DNA of 64,000 bases from an uncultured virus (IMG/VR IMGVR_UViG_2852309159_000005) (Duplodnaviria > Heunggongvirae > Uroviricota > Caudoviricetes): IMG/VR virus record IMGVR_UViG_2852309159_000005, positions 1-64,000 of that record; one strand, 5' to 3'. A model generated the notes under the pieces. The model worked only from the letters and a program-made list of their open reading frames with translations, did not search any database and was not told where the DNA came from. Of the stretch, positions 9,363 through 64,000 are shown piece by piece. The position numbers and the translations under genes were made by a program. How positions within the stretch are numbered: position 1 is the first letter of the stretch; each line of letters opens with the position of its first letter.

Positions 9363-9635
9363 TTACCTCGCCGTAACCCCGAACTCACTGCTCGGCTGTT
9401 TTGTTTTAACTCCTGAAAATACTGCTACATTAGGTAAGCAACAGTTATCTCCACTTGGATAATGCTTTGTTGGTTTGAGAGAGAGAACAGGGCGTTCTGG
9501 TCTCTCAACGCCAAATATCGAATCCCAAATTTCTTCCACTGAGCGACTTCTCATAGCTATCTTTCGAGCCAAAAACTCACCTTGCTTTCTGCGTCTGCGA
9601 ATTTTTGAGTTCTCTTTAAAAATTATTGTTGCCAT
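9363..9635 (-). CDS. N: N antitermination protein
   Basis: First pL gene after nutL; Arg-rich KIRRRRK; MATIIFKE, LARKIA and SEFGVT resemble phage 21 N; CLPNVA resembles the lambda/P22 N C-terminus. Confidence 0.85.
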   Translation of the reverse strand: MATIIFKENSKIRRRRKQGEFLARKIAMRSRSVEEIWDSIFGVERPERPVLSLKPTKHYPSGDNCCLPNVAVFSGVKTKQPSSEFGVTAR

Positions 9636-9750
9636 ATTTGCCTCCTAAGTGATATTTGGTGGTGATGCCGGATGCCTCCGGTAGCTGTCTTTCGCCCACA
9701 AGGCGACTGCTTGTCTTTTCGACCATCACCCCAAAAACCACTCAGTGGTT

Positions 9751-9793
9751 GCTCTGAAAATTTATTCTGAGCGTTCCTAATTGTAAAAGAGCG
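9751..9793 (-). promoter_or_regulatory. nutL: boxA CGCTCTTTTACA plus boxB GCTC-A-GAA-TAAATT-TTC-A-GAGC
   Basis: Lies between pL and N; mirrors nutR with a compensatory GAA/TTC vs GAG/CTC change. Confidence 0.85.
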
Positions 9794-10592: not shown

Positions 10593-11318
10593 TTAAAACA
10601 GTGCTCGGCCTGTTTTTTCGCAAGCGTCTATATATTTAATTGGTTTAACGATGGCTGACACATAGTGCATGGTGTCAACTTGATCTGGTGATAAAGTTAT
10701 AGGCTTGTGTGAGTTGTTTATACTGGAAAACTGATAGTCTCCATCACGAGTTTTGCTGAAAATTTTAATCATGTTGTGACCTTCTACCGTACGCACAAAA
10801 ACCTCATCGCCAGATCTGACTGTTGTATTTGGCTCAACCACAACAAATTCACCTGACTGAATGCGTGGCCACATACTGTCACCTTTAACCTTCAACCCGT
10901 AGGCGTCTTTATCGTCGCTGTATATCTTCAGCCAGCCATTGTGAGCCTCGATCATATCAACGGCACCATCAACACCTAAGAATGCCTCACCGCGCACCTG
11001 AACCATTCCTGAAGGCACTGTGCCTACATATTCGATTTCATCATCTACCGATTGAGCCAGAGACATTATTTGTTTAGATATTGACGGACTTATATCACTA
11101 ACAGCAACCTTCAATATCTTTGCAAATGTAGCAACTGCGTTCGGGTTTAATGGATTAATTCCATTTAAATAATGACTGACAGCACTTTGGTTGACACCTA
11201 GCTTTTCAGCTATGTCTTCTTGATTTATCCCTAGCGTCTTGCGCTTAGAGGAATAGATTGATTTAAGCCTTCTGGCATCTGCCAGTTGCTCTTCTGATAG
11301 CGGTTTCTTTTTGTTCAT
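10593..11318 (-). CDS. cI: CI repressor (HTH plus S24 autopeptidase)
   Basis: KKPLSEEQLADARRLK, lambda CI-like N-domain; GDSMWP. Confidence 0.95.
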   Translation of the reverse strand: MNKKKPLSEEQLADARRLKSIYSSKRKTLGINQEDIAEKLGVNQSAVSHYLNGINPLNPNAVATFAKILKVAVSDISPSISKQIMSLAQSVDDEIEYVGTVPSGMVQVRGEAFLGVDGAVDMIEAHNGWLKIYSDDKDAYGLKVKGDSMWPRIQSGEFVVVEPNTTVRSGDEVFVRTVEGHNMIKIFSKTRDGDYQFSSINNSHKPITLSPDQVDTMHYVSAIVKPIKYIDACEKTGRALF

Positions 11319-11423: not shown

Positions 11424-11609
11424 ATGAACCAACTAGCTTTACGTGAATATGTCAAGGAGCATGGTCAAGATAAGACGGCTAAAGCAATAGGTGTTACTCA
11501 AGGCGCTATCAGTAAAGCGCTAAGAGAAGGGAGAAATATTCTCTTATCACAAACGGAAAATGGCATTAAAGCAATAGAAATAAAGCCATTTCCAAGCACT
11601 AAAAAATAA
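11424..11609 (+). CDS. cro: Cro repressor
   Basis: GQDKTAKAIGVTQGAISKA...EIKPFPS, lambda Cro-like. Confidence 0.93.
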   Translation: MNQLALREYVKEHGQDKTAKAIGVTQGAISKALREGRNILLSQTENGIKAIEIKPFPSTKK

Positions 11610-11618
11610 TCACCATCA

Positions 11619-11662
11619 CGCTCTTTAACATCGCTAACCCGCTCAGAGTAAATTCTCAGAGC
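11619..11662 (+). promoter_or_regulatory. nutR: boxA CGCTCTTTAACA plus boxB GCTC-A-GAG-TAAATT-CTC-A-GAGC
   Basis: Immediately after cro; consensus boxA; paired with nutL. Confidence 0.88.
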
Positions 11663-11745: not shown

Positions 11746-12084
11746 ATGGAACTATCAAACGAACGCAAATTTCGAGAAATCGAATCAAAAATCATGAAAG
11801 GGATACTTGTTACTGGCGCTAGAGAAGTAGCGAAAAGAACGGGTATTCACGAATCACAAATATCTCGCTGGCAATCTCAACAATCCAAAACGCAATTAAG
11901 CTTCATACAACGTTGTGCAAGGCTTTTAGTTGCTATTGGGTATGAGACACCAGATGACACAGTGATATTGCAAGGTGATGAGGCTAGAGCGTTAATTCAG
12001 ATGCTTGAACATGTCAAAGCACCAAAAAGAAAAACCTCAACCACGGCGAATGGTGAGGCTTCTCAACAAATGGATTTAATTTAA
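11746..12084 (+). CDS. cII: CII activator
   Basis: GAREVAKRTGIHESQISRW HTH; position; OOP-like minus-strand terminator at ~12031-12061. Confidence 0.88.
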   Translation: MELSNERKFREIESKIMKGILVTGAREVAKRTGIHESQISRWQSQQSKTQLSFIQRCARLLVAIGYETPDDTVILQGDEARALIQMLEHVKAPKRKTSTTANGEASQQMDLI

Positions 12085-49231: not shown

Positions 49232-49463
49232 TTATTCTGTCTTCAAATACTGCACAGAATTCGCATCTGGAAACTTCTTACTTCTCTCACGATAAAAACG
49301 CTAATCGTTCATTAAAGTACGCTCTCAAATGTGCTGGTTGTTGTCGTTCAACTTCTGAGGCAACAACTGGCATATTGAGGCGTTCTTTATATGCGACACC
49401 ACTTGCGGCTAAATCGACATTGATTTTGTCTTTTTCTTCTTGAGTTAGGTTTGCGATGTTCAT
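49232..49463 (-). CDS. holE: DNA polymerase III theta subunit homolog (extra T near 49295 truncates the ORF)
   Basis: [22 protein letters not shown]...QPAHLR closely resembles HolE. Confidence 0.88.
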
Positions 49464-49636
49464 AACAGGTCCGGTTAGTTTTTGGAGAGTATAGCAGGGT
49501 GTGGAATTAATGGGACGATTTTGGGACAAGCAACATGAAGCAGCATAAGGCAACTTCAAGTAACTTTAGGTAAGGTGGGACGTGTGAACGCTTGGTGAGA
49601 CTGTATTTAGTTGATATTAAAGCATAATTCTACGCT

Positions 49637-49847: not shown

Positions 49848-51059
49848 ATGAAGCTAACAGCCAGACAAGTAGAGACTTCCAAGCCAAAAGAGAAAGCTTA
49901 TAAACTTTCTGACGGTGGGGGCATGTATTTAGAAGTTGCTCCGAATGGTTCTAAGTATTGGCGTATGAAATATAGATATGCTGGTAAAGAGAAAAGGCTG
50001 GCTTTAGGTGTATACCCATCAATATCACTCGCACAAGCTAGGGCGAAGAGAGAAGAAGCCAAGCGCATATTAGCGTTAGGTGATGATCCATCTTTAGTGA
50101 AGAAAGCAGAAAAGAGAGAGAAAGAATCTCAAGTAAATAATAGCTTTGAAAAAATCACGCTTGAATGGCATGACTATAAAAAGCCGAATTGGTCAAAAGG
50201 TTATGCGGATGATTTACTAGAAGCCTTCCAGAAAGATATCTTTCCTTATATTGGTAAAGTTAGCATTACGGAAATTAAACCGTTAGATATGTTAGAAGTG
50301 CTTCGGAAGTTAGAAAAACGCGGCGTGTTGGATAAACTTAAAAAGATAAGGCAGGCATGTAACCAAGTATTCCGCTATGCAATTGTGACAGGACGGGCCG
50401 AGTATAATCCTGCATCAGAATTAGCCGGCGCACTGTCTACTCCAAAAGCTAAGCATTTTCCTCACTTAAATGTGAATGAGTTACCTGAGTTTTTACAGGC
50501 ACTATCTGTATGTAGTGGAAGTAAGATCACTCAGATTGCGACAAAGCTATTAATGATAACAGGCGTTCGTACTATTGAGCTTAGAGCGGCTGAATGGTCA
50601 GAAATTGATTTTGATAAAGCTATTTGGGAAATTCCAAAAGAACGTATGAAAATGCGTCGCCCTCACATGGTGCCATTATCTACACAGGCCTTAGAATTAT
50701 TCAAAGAAATACAAACCATAACAGGAAAGTTTAAGTATATCTTTCATGGTAGGAATGATGCTTCTAAGCCAATGAGTGAAGCGGCCATAAATCAGGTTAT
50801 CAAGCGTATTGGTTATGATGGTAGAGCCACAGGTCACGGATTCAGACATACAATGAGCACCATCCTACACGAGCAAGGCTATAACACTGCATGGATTGAG
50901 ACACAACTTGCACACGTTGATAAAAACTCTATTCGTGGAACGTATAACCATGCTCAGTATATTGATGGCCGTAGAGAAATGCTTCAATGGTACGCTGATT
51001 ATATGGATACTTTAGAGAACGGGGATAATGTTGTGCACGGTAACTTTAAACGTGCTTAA
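49848..51059 (+). CDS. int: P4/CP4-57 IntA-family integrase
   Basis: YKLSDGGGMYLEV...GSKYWRMKYR; TGVRTIE; HGFRH; YNHAQY. Confidence 0.95.
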   Translation: MKLTARQVETSKPKEKAYKLSDGGGMYLEVAPNGSKYWRMKYRYAGKEKRLALGVYPSISLAQARAKREEAKRILALGDDPSLVKKAEKREKESQVNNSFEKITLEWHDYKKPNWSKGYADDLLEAFQKDIFPYIGKVSITEIKPLDMLEVLRKLEKRGVLDKLKKIRQACNQVFRYAIVTGRAEYNPASELAGALSTPKAKHFPHLNVNELPEFLQALSVCSGSKITQIATKLLMITGVRTIELRAAEWSEIDFDKAIWEIPKERMKMRRPHMVPLSTQALELFKEIQTITGKFKYIFHGRNDASKPMSEAAINQVIKRIGYDGRATGHGFRHTMSTILHEQGYNTAWIETQLAHVDKNSIRGTYNHAQYIDGRREMLQWYADYMDTLENGDNVVHGNFKRA

Positions 51060-51270
51060 CCCACCAGCAGACACATACAGAACCAGACTTTTAAAGGTCT
51101 AGTTTTTTGTACCGAGAAAGGGTATCAATAATATTTAATCATTAAATGTATGATGTGGCTGAATTCTAACTAAGATGAGAAAAATCTTAATATACGCTTA
51201 AGAGTACACTCTAGTAGACGACAATAGACTATGCGAAGATGTGATAAATAAAACTGTTCGTTTCTTAAGC

Positions 51271-51298
51271 TTGACTGTTCATTATTACAGTATAATAT
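51271..51298 (+). promoter_or_regulatory. Sigma70-like promoter overlapped by a LexA box CTGTTCATTATTACAG (51275-51290)
   Basis: TTGACT...TATAAT/TAATAT; exact CTGT-N8-ACAG core. Confidence 0.75.
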
Positions 51299-51332
51299 AC
51301 CTAGTAGTACCGCAGTAGATCATTGTGGACTT

Positions 51333-51965
51333 TGTTCTTTAACATCTTTGCGCTGAAAAAGTGCGCTATGTTCTTTAACAACGATGATAGCGAGTTGTGT
51401 ATTCGCTATCAGAATGGAGTCGCTGATAAAGCGTCCAATGCTCTTTGACAAATTCAGGTATTCCCAGAGTAAATTCTCAGGGGCAATCTGTCACGGTGGC
51501 GCTCTTGAAGCGCTGATATATGAAGTTTTATCTGATTAGTGGTAGAACGTATTTGTAATAAATACAGGACGCTCAGAGGAACTTCTCCGAGCATATAAGT
51601 TTTATTGATAATCTTTATATTAGATTATCAGCTCTTTAAAATATGGATTCCCCCTTAGGTTGTCTTGAGGGGGGCTAATGATAACCTCATTAGTATGTTG
51701 ATGACTTCTCAACATAAATAATATTTGTACGGATAGCTACTTGCTCTTTAAAAATGACCTGCGCTCCTTGCAAACGGGAGCTTTTAGTAAGCAATTTAAT
51801 GCTATTGTTATGTTTACTAAATATATGTATTTCAGGTCGTTAATAGCAATTCGTTAATCTGACTATTCAAATTAGTGATTGTTCTTTGAAATTTTAATGC
51901 TCTGCCTTTGTGGAGTATAGCTGTAGTTCTGTTCTTTTATAATCAATAGCACATGCATCGTGTGC
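51333..51965 (+). promoter_or_regulatory. Tandem array of boxA elements and boxB-like hairpins (nut-like array)
   Basis: boxA-like 12-mers at 51333, 51369, 51439, 51630, 51742, 51880 and 51930, each followed by a hairpin. Confidence 0.8.
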
Positions 51966-52061
51966 ACAAAGTTAATTAATTGTTGAGAATATTTCCTCTT
52001 AAACAGTAAATTTTCTCTTCTATTAAAATATCTAAAATATAAACCTGAATAATGCGTTATT

Positions 52062-52091
52062 AACCTTATACATTTATGTATAGGGTTTTTT
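52062..52091 (+). terminator. Intrinsic terminator just upstream of alpA
   Basis: AACCTTATACA-TTTA-TGTATAGGGTT followed by a T-run. Confidence 0.7.
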
Positions 52092-52126
52092 CGCATGTCT
52101 TTTCATATCACATTAAGGAAAATACT

Positions 52127-52324
52127 ATGAATAATCTGATTAGGCTTTCAGAGGTTTTGCGACGCACAGGTTACAGCAAAGCTTGGATTTATAGATTAAT
52201 TAAAGAAAATGACTTTCCTAAACAAGTTAAAATAGGAGCCCGTTCTATTGCTTTCGTTGAGTCGGAAGTCGATGAATGGATCGCTAATAAGATTGCTGAA
52301 TCACGTTCTGGTGAGGTGGCATAA
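52127..52324 (+). CDS. alpA: AlpA-family regulator/excisionase
   Basis: LIRLSEVLRRTGYSKAWIYRLI...FPKQVKIGARSIAFVESEVDEWI. Confidence 0.95.
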   Translation: MNNLIRLSEVLRRTGYSKAWIYRLIKENDFPKQVKIGARSIAFVESEVDEWIANKIAESRSGEVA

Positions 52325-52719
52325 TGGAAAAGAAAAACCACCCATTACAGGTGGCTTCTCAGAATAACGTAGCGTCGTCTATTCTACCAAAGAACCCACC
52401 TAAAAAACACCGTGCCCGTTTATATATGTTAGGTACTGGCATTAATGGTTTTACGGAGAATGAAATATTAATTCATTGCCGTTTATCGTCAGGCCGTAAT
52501 TACCCGAATGAATTAGAGCGTTTATTGAATATCGAACTAGAACGCATTGATGAGCCTAATCCTGATGGTATCGGATCACATTATCGTTACCGCTTTAAAA
52601 CGGCTCAAGATGTGCAGAAGGTTATTGACTTAATAAATAAACGTGCTGAACAAGGTAATTACCAACCCATAGATAACGCACTCATAAATAATATTTTAAG
52701 CCTGTACCCGACCGAATAA
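52324..52719 (+). CDS. Hypothetical satellite protein, possible winged helix
   Basis: Coupled to alpA. Confidence 0.65.
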   Translation: MEKKNHPLQVASQNNVASSILPKNPPKKHRARLYMLGTGINGFTENEILIHCRLSSGRNYPNELERLLNIELERIDEPNPDGIGSHYRYRFKTAQDVQKVIDLINKRAEQGNYQPIDNALINNILSLYPTE

Positions 52720-52733
52720 CGGAGTAATAAATA

Positions 52734-53429
52734 ATGAAACTGAAAAATAACAGCTTAAGTGCTGGTGGATTCGCTCACCCTGAAATCAGCCAAGATCCTA
52801 TTTTAATTCAACACAAAACTGAGCCGAGAATAGATAGTCGCTTGTTTGCTAAGCGAGCTGGATTACAACATCGTAGCCTATACAAATTAATTAAAAATAA
52901 CATTAAGCAACTAAGAGAGTTCGGATCACTGCCGTCATTTGAAATCGCAGCAGTGAAAGAAACGGGCGCACGAGGAATTAAGCACAACCGTTATTATCTG
53001 CTTAATGAAAGCCAATTTGATTTTATGTGCCGTATTGTTCGCGGTCGTAATCATGAGCAGATGACGCAATTCAAGCTGGACGTTACCAAAGCATTCAGCA
53101 AGAAACGCGCCGCTGAACCTATCCGCCGTGAATATTTGCCACATTACCATGAGTCACGCGACGCACTCAGAGACTTAGGCGCAGAGAAACATCATTACAT
53201 CAATTTAGCCCGTACAGAGAACCGATTAACAGGCTTACTCACTGGCGAACGCGCCAGCGCAGACGAGCAACAATTAGGTTTATTGGTCTGTATGCAGAAA
53301 ATCGAACGGGCAGCATTTCAAGATGCGATTGATTCGGGCTTATCGGCTACTCAGGCATTGCGAGAGGTTAGCAAACGCATTGAGCAGTTCGCTAGTTTAA
53401 TGAGTCCTACGGTGCGAATTGGTGGCTAA
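52734..53429 (+). CDS. Rha-family regulator
   Basis: EPRIDSRLFA...YYLLNESQ...FKLDVTKAF. Confidence 0.8.
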   Translation: MKLKNNSLSAGGFAHPEISQDPILIQHKTEPRIDSRLFAKRAGLQHRSLYKLIKNNIKQLREFGSLPSFEIAAVKETGARGIKHNRYYLLNESQFDFMCRIVRGRNHEQMTQFKLDVTKAFSKKRAAEPIRREYLPHYHESRDALRDLGAEKHHYINLARTENRLTGLLTGERASADEQQLGLLVCMQKIERAAFQDAIDSGLSATQALREVSKRIEQFASLMSPTVRIGG

Positions 53430-54034
53430 TATGATGAATATCGCAGCTAATGCCTACCAAGTGAATGATTCCCTACTGGCAGGTAATAACGTAAGTTCAA
53501 CTTACACCACGACTAATACGGTAGCTTTAAACTATGGTATTACGGGCAGTCAATCAGCGAAAATTTACGCCAATCAATCAATCCTAACCACCGTTGGAGG
53601 ATGGGATAACAGCGATAACCTAAAAACGTGGAGAATTTACACCATTTATTAAAGGTGATTTTTCTCACCTTTCTAAAGTCGGAAAATCTCGCTATTTATC
53701 GAGTGAAATTGAGTTTTTTGAGTCCATAAAAAAGGGCAGCCAATCGGCTACCCTTGGAAACGTCGATATTAAATACCGAGCAAGTGAGAACTATAAGAAT
53801 AGTATTCATCTTGTTATCGGTAAAGATGACAACCTTGAGTTAATACAAAAATGTGCAATACATCACTTGCACTTATGGGTAATTGTTGGCTATAGTGATC
53901 AGGCACTAGCAAAATCTAGTGTCAGAATTGGCGTTCTGAATCAGTTACTGGCGACACATGACGCGCCTTGCGTCTTTTTTTGTGTCCATGCCTACGCACA
54001 CCCATTAAATGCGGTATTATATCGCGCTGAATCT

Positions 54035-54114
54035 ATGGTGGCGGCAGCAGAGCAACCGAAAGGTTGGCTGGATTCCAGTAACTCCAGTAACGCCAACTCT
54101 ACTGTCGTCACCAC
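54035..54114 (+). ncRNA. C4/P4 CI-type antisense immunity RNA
   Basis: Long outer stem with a GAAA-tetraloop hairpin; CCAGTAAC and AACGCCAA are complementary to GTTACTGG/TTGGCGTT found upstream (53928-53951) and downstream (54123-54161); PLE-like promoter TTGCAC..TATAGT at 53867-53896. Confidence 0.8.
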
Positions 54115-54172
54115 CCCCGAAATTGGCGTTTCAAGTGGTGACTCCTTAACTAAGTTACTGGAGATCATCGTT

Positions 54173-54364
54173 ATGATGGCAACCCCTACCCACACTCAAT
54201 TCAAATTTTTGTTTCTGAGTATTAAACGCTCAGATACAACCGCTAAACCTTGTCGTATTGCTGTTACAGCATCGAATGAACACGATGCAAGACTGATGCT
54301 TGTACGTGATTATATCCTGTCATTCGCTGGTCGCTTACCTGCTCAGGAGGTGGCTCATGCGTAA
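54173..54364 (+). CDS. Icd-like cell division inhibitor (C-terminal part of the Ash-like ORF 53867-54364)
   Basis: FKFLFL...ASNEHDARLML...LSFAGRLP. Confidence 0.8.
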   Translation: MMATPTHTQFKFLFLSIKRSDTTAKPCRIAVTASNEHDARLMLVRDYILSFAGRLPAQEVAHA

Positions 54365-54530
54365 CCCTCAACCTAACGATTTCTACACGCATAAAAATAA
54401 TAGCGAAACCGTCAAAGTTCTATCAGTTCAATTTAACCGTGTGACCTTTCAGCGAGACGGCTTTGATAATCCTGTCATTGTTCCATTAAGCCAGTTCAGC
54501 AACGAATACATTTATTCGGGGAGGGCTTAA
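54357..54530 (+). CDS. DUF4222-like protein
   Basis: PQPNDFY...RVTFQRDGF...PLSQF. Confidence 0.65.
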   Translation: MRNPQPNDFYTHKNNSETVKVLSVQFNRVTFQRDGFDNPVIVPLSQFSNEYIYSGRA

Positions 54531-54963
54531 TTATGGGGCGTTATCCAGAAAACTATAAGCGTATTCAAGCCGAAATTTCGAACATGTTAGGCAATGACCT
54601 CCTTTTATCTTCAGAAGAACGTAGCCGTGACCGATTACTTAGGGTTCGGAAAGGTATGGCTCATATTCTTAGTGAAGTATTTCCTCTAATTGATGATCCC
54701 AAAAAAACAAGAACTCTATTACTGGTTGGAAGCCATTAGCCGTATCAGTGGCGCAGAAGCCGTAGACGCTAAATCGAAGGGGGAAGCATGAGCAAACCTA
54801 TTCCATTGGACATAGCTGCATACAAGGCGCAGCAAAATAATTCATTACTTGCCGTTATCTTAGAGTTAGCAAGTAAAGATTGTTCGCGGGAGTTAATCGA
54901 CCTCGTTTCTATTGCGTATGACTTTAATGCGGAAATATGTGAATCCCTTGAGGAGGCGACCAA

Positions 54964-55173
54964 ATGAAAACAATCAAGTTAAATATTGGTCACTTATCTA
55001 CCTTGGAAGAAGTCGAACACATCAACGAAGAACTTCAAGCGTTGTTAATCCCACTGTTAACAGCTGTAGAGAATGAAGCTGAGACGGATACGCATTTTAT
55101 GCTGAGAGCAGTCAACCGCTCAGTGTGTGCTCAAGGAAAAGAAATCACAAAGTTGGTGGAGGTGATGAAATGA
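54964..55173 (+). CDS. Hypothetical satellite protein
   Basis: Coupled ORF with RBS. Confidence 0.55.
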   Translation: MKTIKLNIGHLSTLEEVEHINEELQALLIPLLTAVENEAETDTHFMLRAVNRSVCAQGKEITKLVEVMK

Positions 55174-55754
55174 GACAAGTCACTATCAATGCCACCAGCT
55201 TAAGTCCATTCATGTATCAAGGTAAGCGAGTTGTCACCTTTGCCATGATTGACGAGGTACACCAACGCCCGAAAGGTACAGCAAAGCGCACATTCAACAC
55301 GCATAAAAAGCACTTTATTGATGGAGTGGATTATTTTTTGCTCACTAAGTACGTCATACGTACCGAGTTACCCGAACTGGAAATAGCTGGAAAAGCAAAA
55401 GAGTTAATGCTTATCACTGAATCAGGTTACTTGATGATAGCCAAGCCATTTACAGATGATTTGTCGTGGCAGGTTCAGCGCTCAATGGTTAACAGCTACT
55501 TTCGTTTGTCTGACTTTCCAGAAATTAAACACATTCAAATACCCACGCTGGCGGAACTTGAAGCCATGCCAATTGGTGAGGCTCAGAACTTGATTAGCCG
55601 CTTAGAGGCTGATTCTTATCAAGGGCACGGTAGGCGTGGCAGCTATGCCATGAACCTACGTCGCAAAGAGAAGAAAGCACTTAAACCAATGGTAATCGCC
55701 ATTGAGCAAGCCTCACAGCTACACATTCAGGATATGGGAGATTATCACTCATGA
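55170..55754 (+). CDS. ORF6N-domain antirepressor-like protein
   Basis: YQGKRVVTFAMIDEVHQRPKGTA...LITESGYLMIAKPFTDDLSWQVQR. Confidence 0.85.
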   Translation: MRQVTINATSLSPFMYQGKRVVTFAMIDEVHQRPKGTAKRTFNTHKKHFIDGVDYFLLTKYVIRTELPELEIAGKAKELMLITESGYLMIAKPFTDDLSWQVQRSMVNSYFRLSDFPEIKHIQIPTLAELEAMPIGEAQNLISRLEADSYQGHGRRGSYAMNLRRKEKKALKPMVIAIEQASQLHIQDMGDYHS

Positions 55755-55923
55755 GAACGTTTCTAATTGCAGGTTATGGCACAACACTAAAAGGCCTAAC
55801 ACTAGGCATTAACAAGCAAGTGATATCTGCCAGCCTAAAAGATGCTCAGTCACAAGTGGTGCGAGAGGCGCAACGTGACGGTTTAATTGATATCCGAATC
55901 AACTATGTGCGTGAGGTGAAGTA

Positions 55924-56118
55924 ATGACGCAAGAACAGAAACGTGAAATAGAGCAATTACTAGAACCGCACCAGTTAAAAGTATTAATGCTAATCACCTT
56001 ACTTTCTACGTGGTTGGAAGCAGAGGAATGCGATGAAACCAGAAACATGATCTGGGCTGTATTGACTGTTGTTTATTCAATTAGGGATGAAATGAACGAA
56101 GCAGTAGAGGGTAAGTAA
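55924..56118 (+). CDS. Hypothetical protein
   Basis: Coupled ORF. Confidence 0.55.
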   Translation: MTQEQKREIEQLLEPHQLKVLMLITLLSTWLEAEECDETRNMIWAVLTVVYSIRDEMNEAVEGK

Positions 56119-56714
56119 TGAATATTTCTAATATTAACGCATTCGAACACAGTGAACAGGGTGTGATCCTCATTACTGAAGCAGCCAACCAAGAGGCTAT
56201 CAGTTATACCGAAGCATTAGAGGCATTAAACGATGGTAGCTTTGATGGTGATCTGATTTTTGGCTTTGAATTAGTTTTAGCTATATCCAAAGGAGAGCGT
56301 GACGGCTTTTTTAATCCAACTAATCAGCAGCGTGTGATCTTGTGGCGTTGGATTGTAGCCGCTTCGTTCGTCGCAGAGCAAGCAGACAATAACGGGACGC
56401 ATCAAGTTGACAACGGCAGAGGTAAAACCATTACCGCCGCTATTTATCGCAACAAACATGCAGCGTTAACCGTCTATGCCGCAAGCGAACGTATGTTACT
56501 AGCTAATCACATTGAGGGCGCTGCTTATGAGCACTATGGGGCAGAGAATGGCGCAATTATGGCAGTAAAGATATATAGGGATTTTATCAATCTTGAGCCT
56601 AAACGTGGTTGCCGACTATCAGAGCGAGGGCGTGAGGGGTTATCTGTTCTTCATGATGATCTAATTAGGGCGATAGAAGATGGTGAATTTAGCGACACCG
56701 TAACCATTCATTAA
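56118..56714 (+). CDS. Hypothetical satellite protein
   Basis: 198-aa coupled ORF. Confidence 0.65.
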   Translation: MNISNINAFEHSEQGVILITEAANQEAISYTEALEALNDGSFDGDLIFGFELVLAISKGERDGFFNPTNQQRVILWRWIVAASFVAEQADNNGTHQVDNGRGKTITAAIYRNKHAALTVYAASERMLLANHIEGAAYEHYGAENGAIMAVKIYRDFINLEPKRGCRLSERGREGLSVLHDDLIRAIEDGEFSDTVTIH

Positions 56715-56728
56715 AAGGACGCAATGAC

Positions 56729-57073
56729 ATGATAACGAAGAATTTTAAAGTTAATTCACTAGCGAATAGCTACGCAGCCGCTATTTACCACGATATTACC
56801 ACACGTAATGGCGGTGATTGGTTTTCGATGAAGGTAGGCAACAAAACGATTGAAGTTGCCATTATTGACGGTGTGAAAGGTATTCGAATGCTCGTTGATA
56901 GCTATTTGCTGAAAGCCTTAAAGGGGCAATATCCCACATGGGAGGCAGTTGCTATTAGCTTGATAGAGCAATGTGTCATTAATGGATATGTCACAGGTTA
57001 TGGTCGAGAGGTGTGGCAAAGCATGATTAATGATATGGGCGACTCTTTAGCTGATAAGGGGGCGTTTCAATGA
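56729..57073 (+). CDS. Hypothetical protein preceding the primase
   Basis: RBS; ATGA overlap with the primase. Confidence 0.6.
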   Translation: MITKNFKVNSLANSYAAAIYHDITTRNGGDWFSMKVGNKTIEVAIIDGVKGIRMLVDSYLLKALKGQYPTWEAVAISLIEQCVINGYVTGYGREVWQSMINDMGDSLADKGAFQ

Positions 57074-59818
57074 AGCCGATTGATGTTATCCGTGAGGTGA
57101 AGCTGAAAGCTAACGGACAATGGCAAGCTATATTATCTCACCTTGAGGCAGAAGTGCCCCTAAACACGCACACGGCTTGCCCTCATTGTGGTGGTAAAGA
57201 CCGGTTTAGATTTGATAACAAGGACGGTAATGGCACGTTTATTTGTAATCAGTGCGGTTCTGGTGATGGATTAGATCTCGTTCAGCGTGTGTTAGGTGTC
57301 AGTGTAACCGAAGCTGCAAAAGAGGTTGCTAACATAATTGGTATTGATACCCGTTCAGCGTGTCCACCAGCCTACCGTCGTTCTGAGATAAAAGCACAAC
57401 AAGACGAACTGAAAGCGCAGCAAGCCGAAAAACAAGCTAACGAGAAGAGAGAGAAGCATAAACGCTTTATTGAACGGTATAACCGCACTATTGCCAATGT
57501 TCAACGTGGGAGATCTGACTATCTCAAGGCTAAGGGGCTGCATGGTTTTGAAATGGATTTATTACAGGACGGTTCTCTTATCATTCCATTATTGGACGCT
57601 GGTGGCGTTATTACTGGCGCACAAACTATTAAGCCTAATGGTGATAAGCGTTTACTGTCAGATAGCTCAAAGTCAGGCAGTTATTACCCCATCAATGAGC
57701 CTGTAAACGTCTCTACGGTGATTATCGCTGAAGGATTAGCAACCGCCCTAACGTGTCACTTAATCCAACCAGAAGCGCACACAGTTGCGGCAATTGATGC
57801 GGGAAACCTCATTCATGTAGCTAAGGTAATGCGAGTTAAGTATCCAGAGAGCAAGATTATTATTGCTGGGGATAACGATATTAAGCCAGACCAAGACAAT
57901 ACAGGGAAATTAGCGGCAGAAAAGGCAGCTAAGGCGGTTAATGGTGTCGCAGTTTTACCCCCAACTGATGATAAAGCCGATTGGGATGACTACCGCCTAT
58001 CACACGGTATTGAGGCGGCAAGACAGGCATTTAATGGCCAAGTGGATCAGCAAGCAGGTGAAATAGTGGAAGAGAATAACGTGATCCACATTGACGCAAA
58101 AAAGAAAGTCAGACCTGACGATGACTTAGCCCCATTTTTTGATAAGCGTCATGGTGGTTTGTATTACATCGAACGCAAGCAAAACAATACGACGGGCGAG
58201 ATTGACGAAAAAGAAACGTGGTTTTCGGATGAAATGGCTACGGTAGGTATTGGCTCTGATGGCAAAGACAGCTATTTAGTTATCGAGATGAAGCAAGAAG
58301 GTAGCAACCGCATAATTTATGAAGCCATTCCGAGACGTGAACTAGGTTCGCCTCAAGGGTGGGGGAGGTTACGCTCCCGTGGCGTTAATATTACAACAAA
58401 GCGTGGTCAATTGGATTTATTAGCTAACTACCTTCAACGGAAAGGAAAGCGCGACGAATGGACGATCACACATACCGCAGGTTGGCATGATGGAGCGTAT
58501 GTGATGCCCGATGGTCATATTATTGGTACACCTAGCCGCCCTGTTGCCTTTTGCGGCGGAACGTCTGCCGTTGCGGGTTATATCGTCAGGGGAACCGCTG
58601 AAAGCTGGCGGAAGAATGTCGGTAATTTAATGAAAGGCAACCAATCTATGATTTTAGGTGGTTTAGTTGCGTTAGCTGCCCCACTGAACTCATTATCGGG
58701 CGGTAGCTCGTTTGGCATTCACCTATTCGCTCAATCCTCAGCAGGGAAAACAACTACTGTAGAAGCGGCTTCAAGTATCTACGGTGTACCCGATGAACTG
58801 AAATTAACATGGGATGCGACAAAGTACGGGTTAACGATTGAAGCCGCCTCTCGAAATGATGGATTTATGCCAATTGATGAAATTGGGCAGGGTAACGATG
58901 TGCGGCATGTGGCAGGAAGTGCCTACAGTTTATTTAATGGTACAGGGCGTATTCAAGGTAATAAAGACGGGGGAAACAAAGCCGTTTTACGTTGGGCGAT
59001 TGTGGCGTTATCAACGGGTGAGGAAGATTTTGAAACTTACCTCATTCGTAATGGTGTTACCCCAAAAGCAGGGCAATTAGTGCGACTGGTGAGTGTGCCA
59101 TTTACCGATACTGTCGAGTTTCACAGCCTTGATGATGGTGATTTGCATTCACGAGCAATAAAACGCGCATCAACGCAGCATTGCGGGGCAGTTGGTAGAG
59201 CATGGATTGAGTATTTAGCCAACAATCAGGACATGGCCAACCAGAAAGTGACCGTCAAAGAAAACGAATGGTTATCGAGTTTACCCGAAGAGGCGTCACC
59301 ACAGGTTAAGCGAGTCCGCTACCCGTTTTGCCATGTTAGACGCTACCGCAGAGCTATCAGCCTCAATTACGGGTTGGGATAGTGGCGAATGTAGCCGATT
59401 TATTCGTAATAGCTTCAATGAATGGCTAGAGAACTATGGCACAGGAAACCGAGAAAAATATCAAGTCGTTAAACGGGCAAGGGATTTTATTCAACGCTAT
59501 GGATTAAATCGCTTTCAGCCATACACCTATGGGAAGCGCAACGGAGATTTAGACCGAGTTTACGCAGGAAGAATAACAAACCTTGCGGGTTACTTGGTTT
59601 CTGGTCGCAGAGAGGACGGCAAGGACGAATATCATATTATCCCGTCAGTATTTGAAGATGAAATACTCTCAGGTATTCAAAAGAAATTGGGGGCGGAAGC
59701 GCTCGAAGAGGCAGGTATTTTAGTCAGACCGGAATCAGGGCGTGTAGACGGTAAAACTATCAGCATTAATGGTAGTCAGCAGCGATTTGTTGTCTTAATT
59801 GATAGCGAGGAAGAATAA
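57070..59818 (+). CDS. Primase-helicase (Zn finger, TOPRIM, DUF927); frameshift near 59315-59330
   Basis: CPHCGGKDRFRFD; AEGLATA; AGDND; GWHDGAYVMPDG; SSAGKTT. Confidence 0.92.
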
Positions 59819-59857
59819 CCAGCCAGAACAGAATCCCCGTGATGAATTAAAAACGTT

Positions 59858-60099
59858 GGGATAAGTGGGATAACGGGATAAGAATTAAAAAAGATAATAA
59901 TATTATTAAGTTAAGTTACTTCTATTTATCCCATGTTATCCCAAGTTACCCCAAATCAAATGATAATAATTTGTTACAAATGTTAATCAAAAAGCAAAGT
60001 TATCCCAAAAATAAAAAGTCTGGGATAAGAAATCGAGGTGTTTGGGATAAGTTAACTTGATGATATTAAATGAAAATAAGCAACTTATCCCGTTATCCC
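59858..60099. repeat. Satellite replication origin: ten GGGATAA/TTATCCC iterons around AT-rich spacers
   Basis: GGGATAA at 59858, 59867, 59875, 60022, 60044; TTATCCC at 59926, 59936, 60000, 60085, 60093. Confidence 0.85.
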
Positions 60100-60137
60100 A
60101 AAGAAAAATCGTTTTTCGCCTATAGAGAGATATTTAA

Positions 60138-60576
60138 ATGAGCACTCAAATACTCACACTAAAACGTAAAAAATCCACCAGCAACGAACACACCAAAAAG
60201 CTTGCAAACTAAAACGCCACAGGAAGCCTCGCAGCAACCGAAGAAGAAAAATAAGGCAGATGTTCACGCGAAGAAGAAACAACACCGTATTGACCGTATA
60301 GCGAAGCACTGGACGATATTTAATGAGCCAGAGGCTAAACCACTGATGATAGGTATCAAGGAAGTCATGATTGCTGAGGTTAAAGATAAAGGGTTGGATA
60401 TTCCAGAGAGCCATATTAAACAGGGATTACGATCATACATTAGTCGTAAAACCTATCTGAAAGCCCTTACTCTGGGCGGTAATCGTTTTGATATGAACGG
60501 GCAGCCTAAAGGAGAAATCACACCTCAACAACAAGCATTAGCAAAACAAATGCTGGTGGAATGGGGGAGACAATAA
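60138..60576 (+). CDS. ProQ/FinO-domain protein (5' frameshift)
   Basis: KPLMIGI...LRSYISRKTYLKAL..GGNRFDMNGQPKGEIT. Confidence 0.85.
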
Positions 60577-60681
60577 ATAAAAAATACCGCCAGAGCGTGA
60601 GCAAAGGCGGTCACTAGAAGAAAAAATGTATAGACATAGCCTTCCTATCCTAATATCAAACAACAAATAAGTCATCAAAAA

Positions 60682-60697
60682 CTGGTTATAAATACAG
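60682..60697. promoter_or_regulatory. Second LexA-like box CTGGTTATAAATACAG upstream of the tail module
   Basis: CTG-N10-CAG with an AT-rich core (reverse strand CTGTATTTATAACCAG); TATAAT at 60728. Confidence 0.6.
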
Positions 60698-60970
60698 TGT
60701 GTTGATTTAAATTTATACCAGAACAGTTATAATGTTTCACAATACGCAATGAATTAATAAATTGATGCAAAAGGTGAAATGTTATGAGCCAATCTCAAAA
60801 AAAACATTCAGTCATTCTTACCCCGTCACAATCTGAGCTATTGAAATTTTTGTTACCCCAAAGAGCAAGCAAACAACCCTAGCCACAGAAAAGTAACGTT
60901 ACATAGTATTGCACGTAGAGCATTAGATATAGGTTTAGATATGATGCAAAAAAATCATTAAGGAATATTT

Positions 60971-61312
60971 ATGACAGGAAAATTTATTCAACAATTTGAG
61001 CGTAAAAATGCCATCGTGAATATAAATACATCGGATGGCATAAAGTCACTTGCTGTCGTGTTTCGTCTCCCCAAAGACCCTAATACACAAAGTTATCTTC
61101 GAATGATCCAGGCTATTCCTGAAATGTCACCTACGGAAATTTTGCTTGAGGTTATCGAAGCATGGGAATTTGATGAGTCGCTTAACTCAGCCAATATGAC
61201 TAAGTTGATTGATAATTGTCCTCAGGCCGCATTTGCCATCATGGAAGCGTTTGGGCGTTTGATTCATTCTCGTGAAATACAACAAATCTGGGGGCAAAAA
61301 TGGCTGATGTAG
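60971..61312 (+). CDS. Phage tail assembly chaperone (TAC_4-like)
   Basis: EVIEAWEFDESLNSANMTKLIDNCPQAAFAI; overlaps the tape measure start. Confidence 0.65.
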   Translation: MTGKFIQQFERKNAIVNINTSDGIKSLAVVFRLPKDPNTQSYLRMIQAIPEMSPTEILLEVIEAWEFDESLNSANMTKLIDNCPQAAFAIMEAFGRLIHSREIQQIWGQKWLM

Positions 61313-64000
61313 CAACAATTTCGCTTGAGGTGAGAACGTCTGACTTAGAGCGCGGTACGCAAAAGTTAAAAGAGTTTGGAGATACAGCCGAAAAGGTGAG
61401 TAGTTTCTTCGCGAAATTTAAATGACCAGTTTAATAAAGGGGTTGGTCACCAAAAAAAAATTTCTGATGTAATAAAAAAGCAAAGGGAAGAATTTGATAA
61501 TTTACTTAACTCGATAAATCCAACCAATAAAGCGTTTCAAAAACTAGATGAATGGCAAGCTAAATTAGCTAGCGCTAGCAAAAAAGGTATTTACCCAAGT
61601 GATGAGATTGCAAAGTATAACGCCATACTTGAGCAGACTAGAGATAAATTAACACGAGTTAATATGTCCCTTACTGCTGAAGGGCAGGCGCTATTAGCTC
61701 AAGAGGCGGCAACAAATAGAGCTAAGCGAGCTGCTGATGATTTTTTAAATTCACTGAAAAATCAAACTGAAATCATAGGAAAAACGAGGACAGAGATTTT
61801 AGAGTTAAAAGCAGCACAACTTGGTGTGTCGCAACAAGCCGCGCCGATGATCAATAAGCTAAAAGAGCAAGAAAAAGCCTTTATGAATGGCTCAATTACC
61901 ATTGGCCAATATCGAAACGCTATGCGGCAATTGCCAGCCCAAATGACAGATATTGTTACGTCATTAGCATCAGGAATGCCTGTTTGGATGGTGATGATAC
62001 AACAAGGGGGGCAGATAAAGGACTCATTTGGTGGTATAGGTAATTCATTGAAGGCTGTAACTTCATTAATCACTCCGTTAAATGTAGGGCTTGCTGCCGC
62101 TGCTTTAGCCGTGGGAGGTTTGAGTTATGCGACATTCAAAGCCCAGATGGTACAGGAAGCCTTTAACCGAGCATTAATAACATCAGGTAAGTATGCTGGG
62201 CTTTCTCGAGGGGAAATTATTGGTTATGCGAACACCATTACTCAAGCTGGGCTAAGTGCTGATTCAGCCACAGAATCACTTACTAAGCTATTAGACGCGG
62301 GGTTAAAAATAGGTGTCGACATTGGCAAGGCTGGAAATGCTATTGCGGAATTTTCCCGTTATTCAGGTAAAAGCATTGATTCGCTTGTCTCGCATTTTGC
62401 ACGATTATCTAATGATCCGTATGGTGGTTCTATTGAACTAAATAAACAGTATCGCTATTTAAGCGCTTCTGTATTACAGCACATTAAAGAACTAGAAGAC
62501 CAAGGAAAGACCACGGAAGCCGTAACATATGCTACTGACGCATTAAGTGGAGCGATGGCAGATCGCGCAAATGAAATACGTTCAAGCATGGGGACACTAC
62601 CAAGCTTTTTTGATGAGATTGGACGTGCTGCTAATAAAATGTGGGATTCGGTGATGGGGCTTGGTGCTGATCCTTCCAAAGCTGAACGATTAGCTAAACT
62701 AGAACAACAAATAAAGTTTGCTAAATCTGATCCTCGGAGGGGTACAGATAAAAGAAAAGGGCTTTCTTATAAAGATGATAAAGAATTGGAACTTCTAGAA
62801 AAGGAAAGGGATGAGTTACTAAAATCAATTGAAGCTGATAAAAAGGCAGCAGAACTCCAAGAGCGTAGTATTAACAACCAAGTATATTTTAATCAACTGG
62901 TTGATAAAGGCACAGATAATGCCGAGAAACGCAGGAGGGAGCACGAAAAATTAAATAAAGCTATACAGGATAATATTGAGCTAGCGAAAAAAGGTGAAGT
63001 CAAACTCTGGACAGATGAACAAATAAAAATGGCCAGAGAAGGAATTGATAAAGCTTTTAAGGATCCGGTTAAACGTAAACCGACTTTTCATAAAGCTGCT
63101 TTTGCAGGAATGCGCCGTGATGAAGGCACTCAAAGTCATGTCATTGCGTTAAAAGCTGAGCTTGAGATGTTGAGTCAAGAAAGCCGACATATAGGCACAA
63201 TTAGTCAGCAACGTAGGGCATTATGGCAAGAGCAAGCTAAGTTTCAAATTCTTGAGCAAGCCAATAAAGAACGAACACTGAGCTTGGAAGAACGAGCCTT
63301 ATTAGCAAGAAAAGACTCAATATTGGCAGAAAAAGAAAAGGCCGCCAGTATTGGAGATCAGATAGAGCAACAGAAACAGTTAAATCAGTTACGTTATTCC
63401 AATGATGACCTTAAAGCTGAGATCGAACTACGCAAAGCAACGATAGGAATGACTAACGAACAAATAGCACAACAAAGAGAACTACTCAAATTAAAAATGG
63501 AGTGGACTAAAAAAGGAGGGGCTGAAACGGATGAAGAATACCTACGTGGTGTAGATTTAATTCAGGAAAAATATGAAACAGAAAGCTGGCTACGTGAGCA
63601 ATGGCGCGAAGGAGTTAAGAAAGCATATGCAGAATATGTGATTAGTGTTACAGATGCAAATGCGGCAGCACAACAATTAACTAAACAAGCTTTTGATAGC
63701 ATGACGGGGGCAATGACTGACTTTCTAACGAAAAGCAAAGCTAGTTTTAAAGATTATGCTGCTAGTTTCTTTAATTTGGCAACAAAAATGATCGTCCAGC
63801 TTACAACGATAAGAATGTTAGAGGCTGGGCTTGGTGGTACAACACTTGGTAATTTTTTAGGGATAAAAGGGCATGCCACAGGTGGCTATACTGGTGATGG
63901 TGGTAAATATGACCCCGCAGGTGTAGTACATAAAGGCGAGTTCGTCTTTACCAAGGAAGCAACGCAACGACTAGGTGTGGATAATCTCTATCGACTAATG
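61300..64000 (+). CDS. Lambda gpH-type tape measure protein carried by the satellite (extra T near 61405; runs off the window, absent from the ORF track)
   Basis: Hand translation: GQYRNAMRQLPAQMTDIVTSLASG...QQGGQIKDSFGG and HATGGYTGDGGKYDPAGVVHKGEFVFTKEATQRLGVDNLYRLM, both gpH hallmarks; frame open from ~61406 to the end. Confidence 0.92.

Follow-up and report, generated by a model that had tools for sequence, protein, structure and literature searches.

What phage signal switches on alpA, the activator gene of Gram-negative phage-inducible chromosomal islands (PICIs)? In the accessible parts of the published accounts, a helper phage turns alpA on via a phage product that is not named there (PMC6092414, PMC11773190), and the inducer 'remains to be identified' (PMC6092414). 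We took up this question at a locus in positions 1 to 64,000 of the uncultured virus record IMGVR_UViG_2852309159_000005 (Caudoviricetes), a 64-kb window that holds a lambdoid prophage (positions 1 to ~49230) and a satellite that starts at 49848 and runs onward. Between the satellite integrase gene (int; 49848-51059, + strand) and alpA (52127-52324, +) lies a leader with a tandem array of nut-like sites, the boxA and boxB elements with which the lambdoid antitermination protein N and its host partners engage. These sites are strand-specific, non-random and homologous or identical to phage nut sites, and the plan of a promoter-like site, an array, a hairpin with a T-run and then alpA recurs in several genera with different sets of modules. 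From these sequence comparisons, we put at about 70% the probability that the leader is a multi-helper sensor, in which N proteins of different phages would antiterminate transcription into alpA.

Nut-like sites between int and alpA

The 1067-nucleotide (nt) gap between int and alpA is free of open reading frames (ORFs; the longest starting with ATG has 74 amino acids (aa)), in keeping with an earlier reading of this DNA (hereafter the original prediction), which had described a non-coding stretch with seven same-strand boxA-like 12-mers and adjoining hairpins. All seven 12-mers were found on the + strand, with none on the - strand of the leader: TGTTCTTTAACA at 51333 and 51369, TGCTCTTTGACA at 51439, AGCTCTTTAAAA at 51630, TGCTCTTTAAAA at 51742, TGTTCTTTGAAA at 51880 and TGTTCTTTTATA at 51930. 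The hairpins that had been named were found as well, all on the + strand (GCGCTGAAAAAGTGC at 51350-51364, CGCTGATAAAGCG at 51421-51433 and CTAATGATAACCTCATTAG, that is, CTAATGA-TAACC-TCATTAG, at 51675-51693). That a hairpin closely follows each boxA proved correct for six of the seven (at 5-12 nt); after the second boxA a spacer hairpin intervenes, arranged exactly as in the homologous phage nutL.

Such a cluster of boxA copies is far above chance expectation. A degenerate pattern derived from the leader sites themselves, WGYTCTTTRAMA, has six matches in the 64-kb window when both strands are counted, all of them on the + strand between 51333 and 51891, where 0.33 matches are expected and none of 100 shuffles reaches six. 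An independent rule that was not fitted to the sites (no more than two mismatches to TGCTCTTTAACA, which we take to be the rrn boxA core, plus a TCTTT core) found five matches on the + strand and none on the - strand of the leader (51300-52000), against a mean of 0.034 in 2000 dinucleotide shuffles, none of which reached five, so that the predicted excess over shuffled sequence was borne out. Across the other 63.3 kb of the window the same rule returned two matches on each strand, and two of these four are the boxA sites of the resident prophage itself, at 11619 (+, nutR) and 9793 (-, nutL). The variants TGTTCTTTAACA, AGTTCTTTAACA and CGCTCTTTAACA are used as boxA by phages of this clade. No Rfam family was found in the leader, even at E<=5.

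The leader was then compared with nut regions of phages, for which a nutL catalogue (80 viral loci fetched with the resident N as query, with the regions upstream of N and the N proteins inspected) and a nutR catalogue (56 loci fetched with the resident cII as query, taking the stretch from cro to cII) were merged into 136 phage regions, to which three reference stretches were added (nutL and nutR of the window's prophage, and Morganella phage IME1369_01); individual loci are cited below by L numbers. Against this merged catalogue the + strand of the leader gave four separate regions at E<=0.01 and its reverse complement gave none, and regions were all but absent from the controls (mean 0.02 and maximum 1 in 100 dinucleotide shuffles; 0 of 60 random 1067-nt segments of the window). 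The matched phage sites lie at canonical places, either from a PL-like promoter to N or from cro to cII. Across the 80 nutL loci, the N proteins combine a near-invariant C-terminal part with at least six different arginine-rich N-terminal parts, each of which goes with its own boxB, and this is the signature expected of N/boxB specificity pairs. As a side observation, the N proteins of Morganellaceae lambdoid phages (L091-L170, and 9363-9635 of the window) are mosaics in which the C-terminal 45 aa are near-invariant.

Eight modules can be distinguished in the leader, all on the + strand. Six of them match nutL or nutR of distinct N lineages at the level of BLAST and the remaining two at the level of motifs, as would follow from the proposal that the satellite collected boxB variants of different helpers upstream of alpA. 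Module 2 (51369-51436) is composed of boxA TGTTCTTTAACA, a spacer hairpin (51386-51410) and the boxB core CGCTGATAAAGCG. Its identity with nutL of L169 reaches 92.6% across 68 nt (E 1e-21), and with IME1369_01 it is 87.5% across 64 nt, there between a PL-like promoter and an N-like gene; the unusual hairpin between boxA and boxB is common to the matched phage nutL, and on five sequences 90% of cells are paired, compared with 24-43% when the partners are slid. Module 3 (51439-51482), missing from the original prediction's list of hairpins, joins boxA TGCTCTTTGACA to the boxB CCCAGAG-TAAATT-CTCAGGG and mimics nutR of the resident prophage: a core of 16/16 nt is identical to that prophage's nutR boxB (11641-11662), the internal A.A mismatch included, and the lower stem differs yet pairs. 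The same core is present in 17 nutR loci. Module 4 (51570-51593) is a boxB, GCTCAGAG-GAACTT-CTCCGAGC, with no boxA of its own nearby; 23 of its 24 positions agree with the boxB in nutL of L125/L129 and in nutR of L248/L276 (E 5e-5 and 2e-5).

Module 6 (51742-51785; boxA TGCTCTTTAAAA and boxB GCTCCTTGCAAACGGGAGC, then TTTT) is identical over 17/17 nt to the nutR boxB of L280 (E 1e-3); its hairpin was scored as terminator-like, with an unexceptional fold (z -0.26), and may act as a weaker stop. Module 8 (51930-51968; boxA TGTTCTTTTATA and boxB GCACA-TGCATCG-TGTGC) is 89.5% identical over 38 nt to the sequence directly after cro in Providencia phage PSTCR7lys (E 5e-3), with 20/20 nt identical to the nutR boxB of L289 and 18/18 to that of L283. 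Likeness at the motif level was seen for module 5 (51630-51672; boxA AGCTCTTTAAAA and a 10-bp hairpin with TAGG-TTGT-CTTG), which resembles the nutR boxB of L238, L247, L252 and L270 (TAGG-N4-CTTG), and for module 7 (51880-51916; boxA TGTTCTTTGAAA and a boxB with loop GCCTTTGT), which resembles that of L282 (3 loci), L245, L254 and L255 and whose stem varies among the window, L015 and L178 with pairing kept.

Module 1 (51333-51366; boxA TGTTCTTTAACA and boxB GCGCTGAAAAAGTGC) is 89.7% identical over 29 nt to the sequence directly after cro, the nutR position, in Providencia phage PSTNGR2lys, a match that is weak alone (E=3 against the whole phage library); the nutL of that phage, upstream of its N gene, has the same boxB, and the likeness extends to nutL in L166-168 and nutR in L260, L273 and L277. 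This hairpin, GCGCT-GAAAA-AGTGC, had been said to differ at 2 nt from the lambda nutR boxB, which we confirmed against the lambda record (J02459, from which lambda nutR and nutL were taken). Likeness to lambda, P22 and phage 21 had been proposed; the best matches are Morganellaceae phages instead, and the supposed echo of phage 21 in the hairpin at 51675 found no match in the nut catalogue. That hairpin is the first of two recognized by folding at 51675-51716; the second, ATGTTGA-TGACTTC-TCAACAT (51694), has only the loop word TGACTTC in common with nutR of L239-type phages, a weak likeness. A further hairpin, GCGCT-CTTGA-AGCGC (51499-51513), is likewise unmatched in the catalogue. By every sequence criterion that could be applied, the leader sites are nut sites.

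Arrays, promoter-like sites and candidate terminators in related satellites

Relatives were gathered in two sets, one of 79 viral loci with the satellite integrase and one of 60 loci that have the protein whose gene comes after alpA, every locus being drawn from another species' genome. In the first set, 72 of the 80 sequences (the window counted) have alpA after int; in the second, alpA is present in 44 of the 60 loci, 41 of these with int upstream. Together the sets provide 99 unique int-alpA gaps. When an array is defined as at least two boxA and an ORF-bearing gap by an ORF of at least 100 aa, 13 of the 17 ORF-free gaps have an array, compared with 1 of the 82 ORF-bearing gaps (Fisher p = 5e-12, a descriptive value and not a true probability, because the rows are related by descent). 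In the lone ORF-bearing gap with an array (L082), the ORF is a spurious minus-strand frame; among the four ORF-free gaps without an array, two are short (256 and 363 nt) and two resemble degraded ORFs. In this comparison, boxA was counted 48 times on the + strand and 4 times on the - strand. The ORFs that otherwise occupy the slot vary greatly and include several DUF6387 proteins; they might serve as cargo or as another kind of helper sensor. In L012-L090 and L174-L230 they are 150-370 aa long, and many start with a conserved peptide such as MSRLIPENPYTSTGWHS.

Arrays were found in Proteus myxofaciens, Providencia alcalifaciens, Pantoea septica, Mixta mediterraneensis and Pluralibacter gergoviae, plus an Escherichia coli element, so that independent and different arrays occupy the same slot in at least six genera (Proteus, Providencia, Escherichia, Pantoea, Mixta and Pluralibacter). 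Of 5426 complete E. coli genomes, 271 have the E. coli array leader at a coverage of >=80%. The lambda nutR boxB recurs unchanged in leaders of E. coli and Pluralibacter, and a 48-nt stretch of the E. coli leader L082 is 93.8% identical to the depositor-annotated nutL of 933W-like phages (annotation from GQ499361), boxB included; the 3' part of the E. coli leader gave only chance matches against the phage library. Within the Morganellaceae group (the window, L015, L022, L173 and L178), modules have been gained, lost and reordered: module 8, for example, comes after module 7 in the window and before module 6 in L178, and L015, L022 and L173 lack it; a ninth module is present in L015, L022 and L178 and absent from the window. 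Of the signals in related int-alpA regions that had been suggested as a check on the original prediction, boxA enrichment and the modular gain and loss of hairpins were seen; covariation, assessed in module 2, was not significant.

Predicted transcription signals frame the array. A promoter-like site, TTGACT-16-TAATAT (51271-51298, +; 9/12 in a consensus scan), lies ~35 nt upstream of the first boxA at a position conserved in L015, L173 and L178, and in array leaders from outside the Morganellaceae the corresponding place is taken by TGGACA-17-TATATT. A 5' hairpin (51306-51331, +; folding energy (dG) -8.3) immediately precedes the first boxA and has the same sequence in L015, L173 and L178. 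Beyond the end of the array at ~51968, a strong hairpin (52052-52096, +; core 52062-52087) with a T-run to 52091 forms a candidate intrinsic terminator 31 nt before the alpA start (dG -18.7 kcal/mol, z -6.3, 0 of 200 shuffles as stable). It is also present in L015 and L173, and L178 retains the hairpin but fails the T-run rule; other genera have equivalent hairpin and T-run elements of different sequence. The order of promoter-like site, array and hairpin elements is common to all array leaders, and under a strict rule 9 of 11 carry such hairpin and T-run elements, one or two each, no more than ~105 nt from alpA. One hairpin type, CCRCA...TGYGG+TTT, was seen only in array-bearing leaders, in six distinct sequences with wobble and compensated positions. 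Upstream of the array, a hairpin with a T-run after int (51081-51112, +; hairpin at gap positions 25-48, dG -5.4, and -11.9 in relatives) is likely the int terminator.

Proposed helper sensing and its alternatives

N-dependent processive antitermination in lambdoid phages uses NusA, NusB, NusE and NusG. With nut sites placed in front of alpA, N-dependent read-through is the most direct expectation, and we infer that the promoter is active, that the hairpins terminate and that N acts on the leader sites. The leader would then be a transcribed, untranslated cassette of a promoter, at least eight nut sites copied from lambdoid phages of the host clade, and terminators before alpA. As long as no phage is active, leader transcripts would stop at the terminators and alpA would stay silent. 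Once a lambdoid helper entered lytic growth and made N, this protein would bind its cognate boxB in the nascent leader RNA while NusB/NusE bound boxA, and the resulting termination-resistant RNA polymerase would read through into alpA. AlpA would go on to switch on its own gene and the satellite cycle, in line with published work on Gram-negative PICIs, in which AlpA is an activator and Stl is lacking (PMC6092414), two points that the original prediction had also made. Many boxB types in one leader would make a single satellite responsive to many helpers, and a decoy role towards N and Nus factors may be added to that of a sensor.

A published experiment on the E. coli PICI EcCIMP1, a relative for which a helper phage has been shown to bring about both induction and packaging (PMC11773190), bears on this mechanism. 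EcCIMP1 sits at tRNA-Thr next to proA in E. coli MP1, and its leader is of the array type, differing from that of L075 at 3 of ~463 aligned positions. According to the accessible parts of the paper, its alpA-lux reporter covers -449 to +50 of alpA, was strongly induced by the helper Kapi1 plus mitomycin C and showed no induction in a mitomycin-treated non-lysogen, and its induction persisted in an alpA deletion (PMC11773190); the same accessible text holds no word beginning 'terminat'. The reporter fragment, by our comparison, spans the whole leader. In Kapi1, boxA and boxB sites follow cro and also precede the gene of a 101-aa N-like protein whose N-terminus is rich in arginine, and the TGCTCTTTAACA 12-mer is the boxA of the Kapi1 nutR. 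The third EcCIMP1 module has a stem start similar to that of the Kapi1 boxB (TCAC..) and shares 4 of 6 loop letters with it, a likeness that is suggestive.

Several observations count against helper sensing by N or narrow its reach. The boxB hairpins, which are small, are no more stable than those of shuffled sequence (z -0.3 to -1.9), so a hairpin after boxA is by itself a weak feature, and support for the boxB assignments comes from the matches to phage sites, not from folding energy. For module 2, two compensatory pairs were found in five sequences and equalled in 153 of 500 shuffles, which is not significant. Promoter-like 9/12 matches are no commoner in the region than in shuffles (17 compared with 16.0 expected); three raw-read RNA runs had no reads of the region, and the contigs of one RNA run cover a relative at a flat depth that may reflect DNA. 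The module of EcCIMP1 is similar, not identical, to the Kapi1 boxB. In L016 and L022, where a close relative adjoins a prophage, no clear copy of that prophage's boxB was seen in the array, and such a copy is clear for this window only. Among the relatives, 81 of the 82 ORF-bearing gaps have no array and no boxA at all; since most relatives carry an ORF instead of an array, the mechanism is not general for Gram-negative PICIs. The slot ORFs, too, are all co-oriented with alpA, and therefore the co-orientation of the sites is not diagnostic. The 365-nt int-alpA leader of EcCICFT073 (L171 9161-9525) has no array, so that this element must be induced otherwise or via a single degenerate site. That leader has at least five AACAA-type direct repeats and one CACTCTTAAAAA with a hairpin after it; a CACTCTTAAAAAT word there, which agrees with the lambda nutL boxA region at 12/13 positions, precedes a hairpin and T-run.

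The same sites could serve the satellite differently. The leader RNA might be a decoy and nothing else, soaking up N and NusB/NusE of incoming lambdoid phages, with terminators that insulate alpA and an array that is anti-phage cargo; this would fit a slot that holds variable, unrelated ORFs in 81 of the 99 unique gaps, as in an accessory-gene hotspot, and many boxA copies per RNA would indeed bind NusB/NusE. When boxA is placed on a plasmid behind a strong promoter, it competes with lambda for a host factor. However, N and Nus factors bound to nascent RNA would themselves modify the polymerase and give read-through into alpA, so that a pure decoy is hard to separate from a sensor, and the EcCIMP1 leader reporter was induced by a helper (accessible text of PMC11773190); we therefore regard a decoy alone as unlikely. 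Less probable still is antitermination of the rrn type, in which the boxA copies would recruit NusB/NusE and partners against Rho, phage or not. CRISPR leaders and suhB use boxA-dependent Nus antitermination, like the rrn leader. Such leaders share with the satellite a boxA and the protection of untranslated RNA synthesis, and the boxA copies here are close to TGCTCTTTAACA in an untranslated RNA ~800 nt long; unlike the satellite array, however, they need no phage protein and no phage-specific boxB, whereas here boxA is paired with phage-type boxB. The leader moreover ends in intrinsic terminator-like hairpins and has none of the C-over-G bias in composition that is typical of Rho loading sites, and constitutive read-through would produce alpA expression without a helper, contrary to PICI behaviour in the accessible published accounts (PMC6092414, PMC11773190).

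It is about as improbable that the modules are recombination scars, fragments of phage early regions picked up without a role. The 92.6% identity of module 2 to a phage nutL suggests recent transfer, but only nut-site fragments have been kept, at least eight of them, from different phage lineages, in one orientation and without flanking phage genes, and the same holds for the independent arrays of the other genera. We give the least credence to repeats that act as DNA, as operators or iterons to which AlpA, integrase or a replication protein would bind: a 12-mer repeated in one orientation near int could mark arm-type or regulator sites, but the copies are unevenly spaced (36 to 191 nt), the G.U pairs and compensated stems are what RNA would show, and identity to phage nut sites accounts for both the repeat and its neighbours.

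The resident prophage, the satellite and known helper sensors

The resident prophage has the early region of a lambdoid phage, with cI (10593-11318, -), cro (11424-11609, +), a cII-like gene (11746-12084, +) and a 90-aa N-like antiterminator (9363-9635, -; PHROG 271 'anti-termination protein N-like', 2.4e-12) whose N-terminus is rich in arginine. Its nutL (9750-9793, -) lies upstream of N and comprises boxA CGCTCTTTTACA (9782-9793) and a boxB; 25 of the 80 N loci have this site ahead of N. Its nutR (11619-11662, +), between cro and cII, comprises boxA CGCTCTTTAACA (11619-11630) and boxB GCTCAGAG-TAAATT-CTCAGAGC (11641-11662). Between the prophage tail-fibre gene and the satellite integrase is a HolE-like gene (DNA polymerase III theta; 49287-49559, -; Pfam 9.6e-30).

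The satellite integrase is a P4-type tyrosine recombinase (Pfam Arm-DNA-bind_3, Phage_int_M and Phage_integrase), and alpA was assigned by Pfam Phage_AlpA (4.4e-21) and by PDB 8c3t, 'AlpA family phage regulatory protein' (9.5e-6). The thought that this AlpA might be an antiterminator like Pseudomonas aeruginosa AlpA was dropped: the PDB sequence search gave 8c3t and TorI only, with no P. aeruginosa AlpA entry. After alpA come Rha-type and ORF6N-type 'Bro' proteins, isrK and C4 antisense RNAs and a DUF4222 protein, and then a Toprim/DUF927 primase, a ProQ/FinO-like protein, and tail chaperone and tape-measure genes. This order matches the four-zone plan of Gram-negative PICIs given in the accessible text of PMC10111431 (integration, Bro and immunity RNA, replication, and captured late genes) and the layout shared with EcCICFT073 and EcCIMP1 (int, alpA, a Bro-type zone with a C4-like RNA, primase and captured late genes); int, alpA and primase are co-oriented, and the satellite has no virion module of its own besides captured late genes. 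A scan of ORFs 52324-61312 with Pfam and PHROGs found none of the capsid-size and Rho-antagonist genes of P4-like satellites (sid, delta and psu); C4-type RNA and isrK are present. At the satellite ends, no tRNA and no flanking direct repeat of at least 14 nt were found.

Further features of the element were noted in passing. In the Bro zone at 53890-54118, Rfam recognized C4 antisense RNA (69.1 bits) and isrK (65.1 bits) and, at a score below threshold, c4-a1b1 targets (40.7 bits): an antisense immunity RNA of the P1/P7/P4 type inside a PICI-like element. The primase consists of two overlapping frames (57070-59382 and 59333-59818) that match consecutive parts of PHROG 1139, which implies a frameshift, real or a sequencing error; in the E. 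coli relative it is one 918-aa gene. The tail assembly chaperone and tape-measure genes (60971-64000) come after the replication zone and may be captured late genes or part of another prophage. Descent of the satellite tape-measure gene from the resident prophage was rejected, the two tape measures not being similar. At L172 (22458-27294), genes for P22-type DNA ejection proteins come after the E. coli tRNA-Thr element and point to captured late genes or to the remnant of a tandem prophage.

Measured against known systems, the parts of the leader are classical, their deployment is not. Lambdoid nutL and nutR have the same arrangement of boxA 5' of a small boxB hairpin on the transcribed strand between promoter and terminators (those of the leader being predicted), but a lambdoid phage has two nut sites of one specificity for its own N, whereas the satellite has at least eight tandem sites of several specificities and no N of its own. 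The derepression of Staphylococcus aureus pathogenicity islands (SaPIs) through Stl and the activation of P4 by P2 Cox likewise tie satellite induction to an early helper product; those switches work by protein-protein or protein-DNA contact with one helper protein, and the one proposed here would be an RNA array for a family of antiterminators. A literature search confined mostly to listings and abstracts, with most subscription journals outside it, found no account that places nut sites in a satellite or names N as the inducer of a PICI.

We also entertain, as a tentative and rather doubtful extension, that this group of Enterobacterales PICIs possesses an evolving 'antenna' of captured nut sites, at once a helper-sensing input and a decoy for N and Nus factors, whose modules would record and predict helper range and feed back on the diversification of N and boxB. 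If the sensor reading is true, the arrays would be a natural catalogue of N/boxB specificities and a compact multi-input RNA sensor for engineering, and this would be, to our knowledge, the first case of a satellite reading its helper's antiterminator. It would also explain how one satellite can answer many helpers, and for the subgroup of PICIs with array leaders, including the experimentally tractable EcCIMP1, it offers a candidate for the inducer: phage N acting on sites in the leader RNA.

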